42,375 bases of DNA from a virus (taxonomy: Duplodnaviria; Heunggongvirae; Uroviricota; Caudoviricetes), in IMG/VR virus record IMGVR_UViG_2802429217_000003; one strand, written 5' to 3'. The stretch's first letter is position 1, and every line of letters begins with the position of its first letter. Below are positions 24,001 through 30,000 of the stretch, piece by piece. Made by a program: the position numbers.

Positions 24001-27000
24001 ATAAGACAAGCTGGAGGACTTTTGCCTCGAGGTCAGCAAGAGGCTTATGAGCGCGGAACACCAATTAACATCAATCTGTATGATCATGCTCGCGGAACTG
24101 TAACGGGGAACACCAGATATAATGATGGGTATGTATCTACTACTACTACGCTGAGACAGGCTCATTTAATAGGGCAGAATCTGCTTGGCAGTTATAATGA
24201 ATATTACATATATGTAGTCGCACCAGCACCAAATTTATTTGATGTGAATGGTGTGTTAGGACGGTATAGTCCATATCCCAGTGAAAACGAATTTGCTGCA
24301 TTAGGTGGGATTCCCTTATCACAAATTATAGGCTGGTATAGAGTATCTTTTGGCGTGATAGAAGGGGGAATGCAGCGAAACAGGCATTATAGAAGAGATT
24401 TATTTCAAGGCTTATCGGTTGCTCCTAATCATGATGGCTATCATCTCGCAGGATTTCCAGACGGTTTTGCCGCATGGCGAGAGCTGCCGTGGAGTGCATT
24501 TGCTCCTGCTGCATGCGAACATGATTACATGGTTCGAATTTTAGATGCCTGCGATTCTTATACGAATAGAATATCTAAAAATGATTTGTTTGCTTTTAAA
24601 AGATTTATGCGGATTCGCTCTTCTCTGATGATCTTACAAAGTATCGAGGATGATTTACAATATAATGAAAATAAAGATGAACTTTAAAAAGTTAATTGCG
24701 TTATTGTTTATTGTCTTAAATATTGCATCACTACCAACATATGCTGATGTAAGTAAGAATTTTAAGGATAATTGTGGTTCTACTACGGCAAAACTTGTAC
24801 AGAGTGTTCAGTTGGTAAATATCTCGTCTGATGTAAATAAGGACAGTAAGGGAATTTATATATCAAGCTCAGCAGGAAAAACATGGTTTATTCCGGGGGG
24901 GCAGTATTACCCTGATAACTATCTAAGTAATGAAATGAGAAAAATAGCAATGGCTGCAGTTCTTTCTAACGTAAGGGTAAATCTATGTGCGAGTGAAGCA
25001 TATACTCCGAATCATGTATGGGCAATTGAATTGGCACCATAATAGTCATTGGTGTTTTAGTTTTTGTTTCATTCAATTTTATTCTGTATTTGATGTTATT
25101 AAGTTTGCCCCGTCCTGAATAACATTGACACGTTCCTGATTTAAATCCGGAGAAAACTATGTGGAAACCTACCGGCGACCGAGTGCTCACCGTACTCATT
25201 GACAGCAAACCGCAGTATTCACGTATTGAAACTAACGGTAAGGACGTTCGTCTGGTTCGCAAGTAACTTGCATTACAGCAGCCCTTCAGCGAGGGGCTGC
25301 GATAATGCCAGGCTCACTAACAGCACCCGCCGCGCACCCAGCGCACTGGCTGATGGTGAGCTTTTTTATTCATAAAGTGAGGCTGTATGAGCGAGAAATT
25401 GAAGATCGTCTATCGCCCGTTACAAAAACTGTCTCCATATGCGCATAACGCCAGGACCCACGGCCCTGAGCAGGTGGCTCAACTGGTAGAAAGCATTAAG
25501 CAATTTGGCTGGACTAATCCAGTGCTGATTGACGAAAAAGGCGAAATTATTGCTGGTCACGGTCGCGTTATGGCGGCTGAAGTGCTCAAAATGGATTCCG
25601 TTCCGGTCATTGTTTTGTCTGGCCTGAAGGAGGATCAGAAAAAGGCGTATCGCCTGGCAGATAATCGTCTGCCGCTTAACGCTGGCTGGGATGAAGAGCT
25701 GTTACGGATGGAACTTTCAGAGTTAATCAATGCTGATTTTGATATCTCCCTGACAGGATTCAGCCCAACAGAAATTGACGAACTGTTGATGGAAGTTTTG
25801 CCGGGCACCGGAACTGAGGAGGAGCCGTACACGACGAAAATTGATACGCCTGTTTATGAGCCGTCAGGCGATAAACCGGATATCGGCGAACTGTACGACG
25901 ATACGAAAACTCAGGAGCTGGTCAGCCGGATACGTGCGGCGTCCCTTGATCCTGATATCGAAAAATTCCTCCTGTGTGCAGCAGAGCGTCACACGGTGTT
26001 TGATTTCAGCAGAATTGCGGACTATTACGCTCACGCCCCCGCTGAAATTCAGCACCTTTTTGAGGAGTCGGCGCTGGTGATCATTGATTATCAGCAGGCC
26101 ATTGAAAATGGATTTGTCCGGATGACGCAACGCATGGTGGAGATCATGCACGGCGGGGAGGAGGAATATGCGTGATGATTTTTGCGCCTTTATTCTGACT
26201 CACGGGCGACCGGACAAAGTTCTGACTTACCGGACATTACGTCGAGCTGGCTATACCGGTAAAATTTTTATCGTCGTTGATGATGAAGATAAAACCCGGC
26301 ATCAGTACATAGCTGAATTTGGTAAACAGGTGTTGGTGTTTTCTAAAGCCGATATCGCCAGTCGTTTTGACGAAGCCGATAATTTCGGTGACCGTCGCTC
26401 AATTTTTTACGCACGTAATGCCTGCTTCGACCTGGCAAAACAGGTCAGGTGTAAATACTTCATTCAGTTCGATGATGATTATCATGAGTTCCAGTTTCGG
26501 GTGGATCACAACTATGACCAGGCCTATTTTCCGATAAGGAAACTGGACGCAATCCTTTCTGAAATGCTGGCGTATTACGAATCAATTCCTGCGCTTTCCA
26601 TCGCTATGTCGCAGGGCGGGGATTTTCTTGGTGACAATGGCGGCCATGCTTCATGGGTGAAACGCAAGGCAATGAACAGCTTTATCTGTTCGGTTGAGCG
26701 ACCGTTCTCATTCATGGGGCGCATTAACGAGGATGTGAATACTTACACGAATCTCGGTCGCCGTGGTGAATTGTTTATGACGATTGGTGCTGTCCAGTTG
26801 GGACAGAAACAGACGCAGAAAAACAGCGGCGGAATGACCGAGCTGTATCTGGATTCCGGAACCTACGTTAAAAGTTTTTACTCCGTCATGTATGCGCCCT
26901 CGTGCGTAAAAATCTCACTGATGGGGGCCAGCCATAAACGCATTCACCATCAGGTCACCTGGAACAACGCTGCAGTAAAAATCCTTAACGAAAAATACAG

Positions 27001-30000
27001 GAAGAAGACACCCTGCATACCAATGGGGGTGACAAATGATTCCGTATTCGAAAGTCGAGTCTTTGGCTGCGTGCCGGATGACCGCACAACAAATCGCTGA
27101 TGTTCTGGATGTTGATCTGAACCGACTGAAAGAAAATCGGGAAGCAATGACAAATTTTTACGCATCCATCCGTAAGGGAAGAGCGAAAGGTGAAGCCGAG
27201 CTACGAGCCGCATTGTTTAAGCTTGCCAGAAAAGGGGATGCCTTTGCTCTGCGTGAGTTACTAAGGGTGGATAAAAATCAGGACTAACTGATGAACAGAC
27301 CGGACTGGGGGGCGTTGCAGCAGGAATATATTGCTGAATACACCCGTTCCGGTATATCTCCGGTTGCATGGTGTGAAGCAAGGGGACTGAATTACGCAAC
27401 AGCCCGTCGTTACATCAAAAAACCTCCGAAAAATGCGCAGACAGAAGTGCGCAAAACTGCGCAAAAAAGTGCGCAGAAAAAATCTGCGCAGACTGCGCAA
27501 AAGCGGAACAGAAAATCTCAGAAAAAAAAGACGGTATCCGATGCCTTCCTGATTAAGAGTGGCGCGGAGGAGATTTCATTCTGTCCCGATGAATTCGGCA
27601 TTTCTGACCAGCAGGCAAAATTCGCCATGCTGGTTGCCCAGGGTAAAAACCTTATCGATGCATACCGCCTGGCGGGTTACGAGGGGACGGGAAACGTAGC
27701 AAGTGCCGCAGCTTCCCGCCTGTTAAGAAATGTTAAGGTTTATCGGGCTATCTCATGGTTCCGCAATCAGTACCAGAAACGCTATACCGCAGACCTGGAT
27801 TTACTGGTGAGTCAGTTGATGGCCATTGTTCAGGCCGACCCCAATCAGTTGGCGCAATTTCGCCGTGTTAACTGCCGTTATTGCTGGGGCGAGAATCACC
27901 TCTACCAGTGGCGCGATATAGCAGAATTCGACAAGGCAGCGGCACAGGCCTCCAGAGATGGCAAACCTGAACCTGAGTATGGTGGCCTCGGGTTTGTTGA
28001 TAACGCCATACCCAATTCGGACTGCCCGAAGTGCTGCGGTGAGGGAACAGGGCAGCTTTATATGGCCGATACCACTCTGCTTGATGGGGATGTACGGCAA
28101 TTATATGCAGGGGCAAAGCTCGGAAAATTCGGTGTTGAGATCCTGCAGGAGAATAAAGCTGCCGCCCGGCGTGAATTGTTGCGTTTGCTTTCTGCTGGCG
28201 GGGCATTATGTGCAGATAAGCGGCTACAGGAACTGGAAATTGAGCGGCGCAGAATGGAAAACCAGAAGCTGCGCAAAGAGATCGAAACGGTGGAGGGTAA
28301 TGAACATCCCCTGCCTGTGGCGATCAATATTAATGTAGTTGATGCCAGGGTAAGGAGTGATGAAGATGATCTCTCCGACGCTTAATGTGCCTCAGGCGCG
28401 ATTTCTTTCCATGCCTCATAAATTTAAAGCCTATATTGCTGGTTTTGGCTCGGGCAAAACATGGGTGGGGTGTGGCGGCATATGCAAGGGGATTTGGGAG
28501 CATCCTGGTATAAATCAGGGATATTTTGCGCCAACGTATCCCCAAATTCGCGATATTTTTTACCCTACAGTGGAAGAAGTTGCTGCTGACTGGGGATTGA
28601 ACGTAAAAATTAATGAGGGAAATAAAGAGGTTCATTTTTATTACGGACGCCAGTATCGGGGAACCACCATCTGCAGATCGATGGAGAAGCCGCAAACGAT
28701 CGTCGGTTTCAAAATTGGTAATGCGCTGGTGGATGAACTGGACATTTTGCCGAAGGAAAAAGCCAGAACTGCGTGGCGCAAGATAATTGCGCGTATGCGT
28801 TATAAGGTTGATGGACTTCGCAACGGTATTGACGTTACAACCACGCCAGAAGGATTCAAATTTGTCTACGAGCAGTTTGTTAAAGCCGTGCGTGAAAAAA
28901 CAGAGTTGTCCTCACTGTATGGTCTGGTGCAGGCATCTACTTTCGATAATGAAAAGAACCTGCCAGCAGATTACATTCCTTCGCTTCTTGAATCATACCC
29001 TCCAGAGCTGATTAAAGCCTATCTTCGTGGACAGTTTACGAACCTGACAAGTGGTACTGTTTACCATCAGTTTGACCGGCAACTGAATAATTGCGAAGAA
29101 GTGGAGCAGCCTGGGGAGCCGATTTATATCGGGATGGATTTTAACGTTGGAAAGATGGCGGGGATCGTCCATGTGCTGCGTTTGGGTCTTCCATGTGCGG
29201 TAACTGAAATCATCAATGCCTACGATACGCCGGATATGATCCGTATCATTAAAGAACGCTTCTGGCTGTATGACGGAAATGATTACCGGAAGGTGAGAGA
29301 AATTTATATTTATCCTGATGCCTCCGGGGATTCCCGAAAATCAAATAATGCAAGTGCGACGGATATTGCTCAGCTTAAACAGGCCGGTTTTAACGTTGTG
29401 GTGAACAGTTCGAACCCGCCAGTAAAAGATCGCGTTAACTCAATGAATGCAATGTTCTGCAATGCCAATGGCGAGCGTCGCTATAAAGTTAATGTGAAGC
29501 GTTGTCCGGTATATGCCGAATCTCTGGAGCAACAGGTCTGGGATGATAAGGGGGAGCCTGATAAAAAATCTGGCAACGATCACCCGAATGATGCAGGAGG
29601 TTATTTCATCGTTAAACAATTCCCTATTGTCAAACCGACCGGAAGAGTCACATCACTTCGGATTTAATTATGGCTGATATATCAACACCCAACCTCGACT
29701 ATAACGATATGCTGGAGGCGTGGGATATTAACGACGCACTGATGGGCGGTACGCTTGAAATGCGCAGGCAGGGAGAAAATTATCTCCCAAAATGGCCTAA
29801 CGAAGATGAAGACGCTTATAAAAAACGCCTGTCCGTGGCTACGCTACTTCCTGTGTATGAAGAAAGCATTAAGCAAAATATTGGGCGCATATTTGCAGAG
29901 CCGACAGTATTGAGTGAGGAAACGCCGGAAAAAATCAGGGAATATGCAGAAAATATCGACATGGAGGGGAGCCGACTGGATGTGTGGGCGCAGCAATTTT

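Follow-up and report, generated by a model that had tools for sequence, protein, structure and literature searches.

In the virus record IMGVR_UViG_2802429217_000003 (Duplodnaviria; Heunggongvirae; Uroviricota; Caudoviricetes), a stretch of 42,375 nucleotides that was analysed as a whole and is hereafter called the window, two overlapping open reading frames (ORF1 and ORF2) precede the terminase genes and raise the question of what a ParB-like protein and a putative sugar transferase accomplish together, and on which molecule they act. In answer, we consider it somewhat better than an even bet (a probability of roughly 0.55) that the pair constitutes a two-subunit, late-expressed DNA glycosyltransferase, which would use an acceptor other than the classical hydroxymethyl-pyrimidine. 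The evidence that carries this reading is the family membership of ORF2, the fold of the ORF1 product, and a linkage between the two genes that was recovered from both directions and, in one case, as a gene fusion.

Identity of the glycosyltransferase

The ORF2 product matched the Pfam family PF20691 (TAGT, TET-associated glycosyltransferase) over profile positions 4-205 of 205 with 118.7 bits (E 4.4e-34; gathering cut-off 27.5 bits) and phrog_842 with an E-value of 6.6e-101, and judged from these matches and from its motifs it is clearly a member of the TAGT family. The motif R...DDD...ED(Y/F) has been defined for phage GT-A enzymes, for which glycosylation of 5-hydroxymethylcytosine (5hmC) in DNA was demonstrated experimentally (bioRxiv 10.1101/2023.12.21.572611). 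The corresponding residues of ORF2 (Table 1) were followed through two alignments, one of 22 close homologs (60-96% identity) and one of 11 distant homologs (down to 24%): R14, D102-D104 and D189 are invariant across both, N187 is conserved at 90% or more in the distant set, and E188 and Y193 are invariant only among the close homologs. The acidic FDDDY motif, on which the first-pass annotation had based its comparison with nucleotide-sugar transferases, spans residues 101-105, and the comparison has proved apt (every motif of the family is conserved); its DDD portion is expected to bind the metal and the nucleotide-sugar donor. The further claim that function could not be read from the sequence stands for the acceptor and falls for the enzyme class. 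The PADLOC models gave no match to the TAGT protein, and a zinc site built from its conserved Cys/His residues was considered and rejected, as the cysteines are not conserved in the distant homologs. Furthermore, TAGT proteins of the Escherichia coli (E. coli) lineage carry 22 extra C-terminal residues that have no counterpart in homologs elsewhere (nt 27036-27100), and the 3' end of the gene is overlapped over 65 nt by an ORF of 83 amino acids (aa) that resembles a small terminase.

The partner protein

Both reading frames were found on the + strand where they had first been placed, overlapping by 8 nt (ATGCGTGA). Because of this overlap, and of the good Shine-Dalgarno sequence at each gene, the two are likely to be translationally coupled, and an abutting or overlapping junction recurs in related loci. 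PGAP names their products 'ynaK, ParB/Srx family N-terminal domain-containing protein' (ORF1) and 'GREB1-related protein' (ORF2).

ORF1 scored 26.5 bits against ParB_N (cut-off 26.3) and E 3e-86 against phrog_620; given these matches and those of ORF2, neither frame arose by chance. In its AlphaFold2 model, built with 47 homologs (mean predicted local distance difference test score, pLDDT, 76.5), residues 1-135 form the N-domain and residues ~155-235 a helical C-terminal domain, both modelled with confidence, and residues 137-153 between them are disordered. The modelled N-domain superposes on PadC, pNOB8 ParB, KorB, ParB-CDP, Noc, sulfiredoxin and a serine kinase and has, in the model, a ParB-CTPase fold, in agreement with the ParB/Srx assignment made at first pass. 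When the nucleoside triphosphate (NTP) binding and hydrolysis motifs of ParB (box I QPR, box II GERRxR, box III EN) were compared with Bacillus subtilis ParB (6sdk), ORF1 was seen to keep N21-x-R23 (for QPR), S36, G57, R60 and D92-N93; two of the three box II arginines are lost, and the catalytic Glu of box II is replaced by His58, which is invariant in a 9-sequence alignment and conserved at 90% or more in a 47-sequence one. The word 'nuclease' in the earlier label of ORF1 derives from an old domain name and found no support in any result: the closest structural relatives of the N-domain are nucleotide- or DNA-binding proteins (ParB, Noc, KorB, PadC) and ATP-dependent enzymes (sulfiredoxin, SerK), none of them known to be a nuclease. 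A partition ParB of plasmid or prophage type was likewise considered and rejected, given that no ParA-type ATPase occurs among the window ORFs scanned, that no helix-turn-helix was found in ORF1 by Pfam or is visible in its model, and that the partition ParB model TIGR00180 scored 33.4 bits (under its cut-off of 58.45); ORF1 is a ParB/Srx-fold protein and not a partition ParB.

The constant partner of TAGT is the C-terminal domain of this protein (~110 aa), and the ParB N-domain is optional. The C-terminal domain belongs to no Pfam family, and fold searches gave no significant match among solved structures. The motif at its start (Table 1) holds two tyrosines, Y148 and Y157, that do not vary from E. 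coli through Lactobacillus phages to the halovirus HHTV-2, and two further residues, P155 and E158, that hardly vary; over their whole length the E. coli partner and those of the Lactobacillus phages phi jlb1 and c5 and of the haloarchaeal virus HHTV-2 share 40-42% identity, and within the helical domain R201-H202 and L230-V-I-I-D234 are conserved. Searched on its own against 1.84 billion cluster representatives, the domain retrieved 1194 proteins, of which 1009 had E<=1e-10; almost all are 250-300 aa long with the domain at the C-terminus; in about 7 of the best 150 matches a Met stands just before the motif and the ParB N-domain is missing. Among 80 IMG/VR loci chosen by the domain, ~49 have the domain-only form and 31 the ParB-fused one, and in Vibrio phages of ~195 kb the 139-aa protein directly upstream of TAGT is the domain alone (52% identity). 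The motif, generalised as YTxKIxxPxYEP, is present also in the domain-only partners. Domain-only partners located away from the terminase were observed in Vibrio phage VB_VaC_SRILMA (L088 5459-6888) and in the IMG/VR loci L100-L135, and one protein (P0270) carries two ParB N-domains ahead of the partner domain.

Conservation of the pair

Loci chosen by TAGT (80 from IMG/VR plus three others; TAGT identity 58-100%) carried a homolog of the ParB-like gene (36-99% identity) directly upstream in 83 of 83 cases. In the reverse direction, the 80 IMG/VR loci chosen by the C-terminal domain all had TAGT downstream on the same strand, directly abutting in 73 (-8 to +22 nt between the profile matches), with a partial domain match in two and with the TAGT match ~840-970 nt later in the remaining five. 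Among the phage records, all 28 that carry the C-terminal domain fall within the 41 that carry TAGT, and the two genes are adjacent in every record inspected. Moreover, P0356 (534 aa) is one uninterrupted ORF in which TAGT and a complete ParB-type partner are joined in the reverse of the usual gene order, its ParB motif reading GGNGR and its YTxKIxxPxYEP motif being present; it comes from a 2.2-kb contig (JGI Ga0233414_10030538; L099 26-1630), was met once among JGI metagenomes and has no match in IMG/VR. The suspicion that the two genes act jointly thus has strong support, from an adjacency that is invariant whichever of the two is used to choose the loci and from one gene fusion.

The pair is present in 1033 of 5426 complete E. 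coli genomes (~19%), at least 80% of it being covered in 887 of these. Prophages of E. coli, Salmonella, Klebsiella and Yersinia carry it, and beyond these hosts it occurs in phages of Lactobacillus, Nocardia and Porphyromonas and in the haloarchaeal virus HHTV-2, with pair identities of 40-46% from E. coli to the Lactobacillus, Nocardia and haloarchaeal viruses. Its order is kept in phi jlb1, c5, HHTV-2, Nocardia phage NTR1, Porphyromonas phages and metagenomic phages from gut and soil, usually with overlapping stop and start codons, and in phage c5 the two are the first genes past cos. In the contexts examined, the ParB-containing form always stands directly before the terminase genes, which belong to three different terminase families, and the commonest neighbours of 19 domain-only loci are genes for DnaB helicase, a DnaA-type helix-turn-helix protein, recombinase and DNA methyltransferase. 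As a separate observation, two gut-metagenome phages (L091 7905-8960; L095 8393-9451) encode a second, unrelated Glycos_transf_2 protein of ~351 aa three genes upstream of ParB-TAGT, which may point to a modification with two sugars in some carriers.

Proposed function and alternative targets

The two genomic settings of the pair (head of the packaging operon, replication/recombination cluster) both concern DNA transactions, and we therefore favour DNA as the target; that the N-domain is otherwise found fused to phage DNA methyltransferases lends support to a DNA-directed reading. Under the two-subunit reading, TAGT would be the catalytic subunit, holding a nucleotide-sugar donor through its DDD motif, and its partner would consist of a ParB/Srx-type N-domain, a disordered linker ending in YTxKIxxPxYEP, and a helical domain that is seen only beside TAGT. 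The C-terminal domain would act as the obligate glycosyltransferase-binding subunit (a role proposed from linkage and the fusion), and the N-domain as an optional NTP-dependent switch, clamp or adaptor that opens double-stranded DNA to the enzyme, much as ParB proteins activate phage thymine dioxygenases on double-stranded DNA and as DpdB serves DpdA. All genes from Q onward lie on the + strand, no + strand terminator-like site was found between the B gene of a type II heat-labile enterotoxin (LT-II) and ORF1, and the G+C content of the pair (0.47-0.48) is that of the packaging genes (0.39 in the toxin genes). We infer that the pair is expressed late, together with the terminase genes, in a transcript that would probably run through Q, toxin genes, lysis genes, LT-II, the pair and the terminase. 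The sugar would then be attached to replicated phage DNA shortly ahead of packaging, and the benefit may lie in shielding the injected DNA from host nucleases.

Several observations weigh against this reading. The window yielded no recognisable TET/JBP dioxygenase, thymidylate-synthase-like hydroxymethylase or C5-methyltransferase, and no TET/JBP, hydroxymethylase or adjacent C5-methyltransferase was found in phage c5 (complete genome, 31.8 kb), in eight further loci with precomputed Pfam contexts, or in six more distant IMG/VR loci. The partner is strongly acidic in every lineage (isoelectric point 4.0-4.6; 4.6 for ORF1) and possesses no DNA-binding domain, which is unusual for a protein that contacts DNA, and the missing enzyme for making a hydroxymethyl-pyrimidine, taken together with this acidity, weakens the role in DNA modification or anti-restriction that the first-pass annotation had offered. 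Since box II is degenerate (GHGR for GERR), binding of NTP by ORF1 is uncertain. The bases of unmodified DNA offer no hydroxyl acceptor. The characterised TAGT-type enzymes all use one (PMC13390438; bioRxiv 10.1101/2023.12.21.572611), and the TAGT-family member GREB1 is described as O-GlcNAcylating a protein. In literature on ynaK, on GREB1 with phage and on HHTV-2 with ParB, no experimental data on the module were found. Lastly, structure prediction, proposed at first pass for both proteins, gave confident domains for the partner and yielded for the TAGT protein a single-sequence AlphaFold2 model that is unusable (mean pLDDT 36.5); sequence and profile searches found no relative of this protein in the PDB even at E<=10. 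The GT-A fold is therefore taken from the published family assignment, by analogy with which ORF2 would adopt it.

The same inventory bears on the nature of the acceptor, which under the DNA-directed reading cannot be a classical 5-hydroxymethyl-pyrimidine made by the phage. No Tet_JBP match lies next to the partner or elsewhere in the contexts scanned (the adjacent gene being TAGT), and no dioxygenase appears among the top 25 of the 61 neighbour families of the 19 domain-only loci. A more specific form of the proposal, which we advance tentatively and regard as possible rather than probable, is that the pair is self-sufficient and, needing no hydroxymethyl precursor, glycosylates unmodified DNA, be it on a canonical base, on the backbone or at a DNA end. 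If true, this would be a DNA modification chemistry so far undescribed; about one fifth of the complete genomes of E. coli would carry it, as would tailed viruses that infect haloarchaea and at least four phyla of bacteria, and the ~110-aa YTxKIxxPxYEP domain would be its enabling subunit. Sugar-decorated DNA is a main route by which phages escape restriction enzymes and CRISPR, and the known DNA-sugar routes all begin with a hydroxyl on a pyrimidine, a step that the TAGT-partner module does without in the contexts examined. With DNA as the target, the module would combine a new acceptor chemistry with a new, ParB-assisted delivery of an enzyme to DNA; its presence in enterobacterial prophages and dairy Lactobacillus phages could have consequences for phage therapy, for typing by restriction and for sequencing signals.

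Among the alternatives, the one that survives best, unlikely as we hold it to be, is that the enzyme glycosylates a protein: either the partner itself (on Tyr/Thr of YTxKIxxPxYEP, in the manner of the self-glucosylation of glycogenin) or a packaging or virion protein. The invariant Tyr148 and Tyr157 of the partner, its exposed, disordered stretch rich in Thr/Ser, its acidity and want of a DNA-binding domain, the hydroxylated base that is not provided, the structural genes that adjoin the module in the window, and the activity ascribed to GREB1 would all be accommodated, and the pair would then be a phage counterpart of the protein glycosylation reported for the animal enzyme. Yet the ParB N-domain is elsewhere tied to DNA-modifying enzymes, the domain-only form is surrounded by genes of replication and recombination and by DNA methyltransferase genes, not by structural ones, and terminase and capsid families vary so widely among carriers that no single conserved virion target is apparent; moreover, the fusion protein, in which a simple tether would be needless, still has the motif.

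Improbable, in our estimate, is an ordinary glycosyltransferase of hydroxymethyl-pyrimidines, whether served by an unrecognised precursor enzyme or by a substrate from a co-resident element, or left behind as a relic of a TET-TAGT system. The family name, and the hydroxymethyl or sugar hydroxyl acceptors of all characterised members, point in this direction, and thousands of phage sequences resembling 5mYOX enzymes (5-methylpyrimidine dioxygenases of TET/JBP type) have no Pfam Tet_JBP match (O'Toole et al. 2026, PMC13229309). The tally of domain-only neighbours, moreover, covers the top 25 of 61 families, and the window holds a 534-aa protein of phrog_13820 without assigned function. This protein, as any other window ORF, was rejected as a hidden dioxygenase: it is encoded within a low-GC island, and among the ORFs called in the contexts of other carriers none is of that size. 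In the complete genome of phage c5, furthermore, no unannotated protein exceeds 208 aa or gives a dioxygenase signal, and it tells against a relic that the pair has stayed intact across domains of life, every catalytic residue included, and that ~19% of the complete E. coli genomes carry it.

Unrelated roles for the two genes (a ParB-like partition, nuclease or packaging factor beside a glycosyltransferase acting on a host surface glycan in lysogenic conversion, or on a small molecule) are very improbable, for although the database labels 'ParB-like nuclease' and 'chromosome partitioning protein', the commonness of prophage glycosyltransferases that alter the O-antigen and the neighbouring lysogenic-conversion toxin genes speak for them, they must contend with adjacency in all loci tested in both directions, probable translational coupling and the fusion protein, with the evidence already given against a partition ParB, and with a TAGT sequence that shows no obvious long hydrophobic stretch (by eye), has no flippase-type partner that could be found and fits the packaging genes, not the low-GC toxin genes, in its G+C content.

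Genomic context

The window is a Rac-like lambdoid E. coli prophage, with genes for an integrase, RecET, SieB, a repressor, YdaT, replication proteins and the Q antiterminator. A pertussis-like toxin pair (21049-22299) lies between Q and the lysis genes, and A and B genes of LT-II (23908-25042; Enterotoxin_a E 1e-114, LT-IIB E 1e-43) follow further downstream; by virtue of these toxin genes the window is an LT-II-converting Rac-like prophage, in line with the reported location of LT-II and pertussis-like toxin in full-length Rac-like prophages (Jobling, PMC5917428). E. coli SA31-1 (from buffalo) shares 99.8% identity with the window over the pair region. The position upstream of the terminase is as first described, the order being the 83-aa ORF, the small terminase subunit (TerS) and the large terminase subunit (TerL); the 83-aa ORF is found in nearly all enterobacterial loci whatever their TerL type and is absent from more distant ones.

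Table 1. Positions of the ORF1/ORF2 pair, of its domains and motifs, and of the adjoining packaging genes (nucleotides of the window)
Feature	Coordinates	Strand	Basis or remark
Shine-Dalgarno GAGG of the ParB-like gene	25379-25382	+	4 nt before the start; read from the sequence
ORF1, partner-protein gene (262 aa, ATG start)	25387-26175	+	ORF call; ParB_N and phrog_620
ParB/Srx-type nucleotide-binding N-domain and short helical segment (residues 1-136)	25387-25794	+	no helix-turn-helix domain after it
G57-H58-G59-R60, counterpart of ParB box II GERR	25555-25566	+	alignment to B. subtilis ParB 6sdk
Motif Y148-T-T-K-I-D-T-P155-V-Y157-E158-P159 (end of disordered linker, start of partner domain)	25828-25863	+	alignments
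Helical C-terminal 'TAGT-partner' domain (residues 155-262)	25849-26172	+	no Pfam family
Junction: Shine-Dalgarno GGAGGAGG (26157-26164), TAGT ATG (26168), ParB TGA (26173-26175)	26157-26175	+	sequence
ORF2, TAGT-family glycosyltransferase gene by profile match (310 aa, ATG start)	26168-27100	+	PF20691 and phrog_842
R14, invariant Arg of R...DDD...ED(Y/F)	26207-26209	+	both homolog alignments
F101-D102-D103-D104-Y105, DxD-type motif	26468-26482	+	D102-D104 invariant in 22 close and 11 distant homologs
N187-E188-D189-V190-N191-T192-Y193, third active-site motif (ED..Y)	26726-26746	+	homolog alignments
83-aa ORF, small-terminase-like; module membership uncertain	27036-27287	+	phrog_309 E 2.5e-22
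TerS, small terminase subunit	27291-28385	+	Terminase_2, phrog_51
TerL, large terminase subunit	28357-29667	+	Terminase_6N/6C

Several further observations concern the surroundings of the pair. Within TerS, a 66-nt segment (27434-27499) holds TGCGCA(G/A)A six times in direct orientation and encodes repeated AQK/AQT; 6 of the 13 TGCGCAG matches in the window fall there, and the repeats could represent a pac site or be bound by TerS. An ORF of 35 aa (MWKPTGDRVLTV..., 25160-25267) lies between the LT-II B gene and ORF1; the DNA around it (match 25200-25367) shows 80% identity to Actinobacillus phage vB_Apl-pPE4, in which the annotation is that of a hypothetical protein. A homologous LT-II A/B pair occupies the same place just upstream of ParB-TAGT in another locus (L001 2180-3332, GCA_048323815.1), whose TAGT protein is labelled Yersinia enterocolitica by NCBI, and the sister locus (L002) is free of toxin; this arrangement suggests that LT-II-like toxins travel between genera on this phage backbone. 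The low-GC island (12153-18003, G+C 0.36-0.38) comprises, besides the 534-aa protein, a pair of insertion sequence fragments (rve and HTH_38) and an 898-aa protein with an Mrr-type nuclease domain and an nSTAND1 NTPase, which has no PADLOC match and is a possible anti-phage defence gene.

Relation to known DNA-modifying systems

The phage GT-A enzymes associated with TET/5mYOX proteins (PMC8256090; bioRxiv 10.1101/2023.12.21.572611) belong to the same PF20691 family as ORF2, share its R...DDD...ED(Y/F) motifs, are likewise phage-encoded and act on DNA after replication; ParB and terminase genes are among the frequent neighbours recorded in the same surveys. They differ from the pair in adjoining a C5-methyltransferase together with a 5mYOX dioxygenase, or a thymidylate-synthase-like enzyme, none of which accompanies the pair, and the obligate partner domain is not described in those of their papers that were examined. 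In the contexts examined, ORF2 thus has no association with an enzyme of hydroxymethyl-pyrimidine synthesis, the very contextual feature behind the name of the TAGT family. Pyle et al. (2024, bioRxiv 10.1101/2023.12.21.572611) set aside the ~65% of glycosyltransferase contigs that have no precursor enzyme, deeming them 'less likely' to modify DNA. The T2/T6 beta-glucosyl-HMC-alpha-glucosyltransferase, by whose name PHROG and RefSeq designate the family of ORF2 (phrog_842), has also been assigned to TAGT (PMC13390438), and homologs of T-even type from Aeromonas phages 65 and Ah1 are 22-25% identical to ORF2. In phages whose cytosine is replaced entirely, the T-even enzyme attaches a second glucose to glucosyl-5hmC, whereas the prophage described here has neither hydroxymethylcytosine synthesis nor a first glucosyltransferase. 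More distant relatives of the phage GT-A/TAGT enzymes are the trypanosome base-J glucosyltransferase (JGT; ~9% sequence identity to phage GT-A enzymes according to Pyle et al., bioRxiv 10.1101/2023.12.21.572611) and animal GREB1: JGT needs 5-hydroxymethyluracil made by JBP, GREB1 is described as glycosylating a protein, and ORF2 is likened to them by family and PGAP name only.

No description of an autonomous module of partner domain and TAGT was found in the literature, of which the TAGT-defining paper (Iyer et al. 2013) was not covered. Since neither the published dioxygenase classes nor Pyle et al. nor the ParB-fold survey of the Le laboratory, which makes no mention of glycosyltransferases (PMC12704722), covers such a combination, the module is, within the literature covered, therefore undescribed. 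The ParB-dependent thymine dioxygenases of phages (O'Toole et al. 2026, PMC13229309) likewise unite a DNA-modifying enzyme with a ParB-like protein, in pairs that are cognate-specific and often encoded near the terminase, and the layout of the 5mYOX-associated ParB (NTP-binding domain, helical segment, disordered linker, C-terminal domain, no DNA-binding domain) is matched by the ORF1 model, as regards layout only. In those systems the client is a dioxygenase clustered with kinases and amino-acid:DNA transferases, the ParB-independent dioxygenases being the ones that published phage work places with glycosyltransferases, whereas the client here is TAGT itself.

Fusions of the ParB N-domain to DNA methyltransferases are homologous to residues 3-143 of ORF1 (phrog_498, E 2e-50; PADLOC MTase_II model PDLC03229, which represents such fusions, E 3.6e-37); in these the catalytic part is fused to the N-domain, while in the pair described here it is a separate glycosyltransferase polypeptide, joined through a dedicated C-terminal domain. 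In 7-deazaguanine DNA modification, DpdA acts on double-stranded DNA only together with the ParB-like NTPase DpdB. The DpdA/DpdB system differs in its base-exchange chemistry, in the unrelated family of its enzyme and in its location on a bacterial island of restriction-modification type, whereas the ORF1/ORF2 pair would operate from the late operon of a phage.

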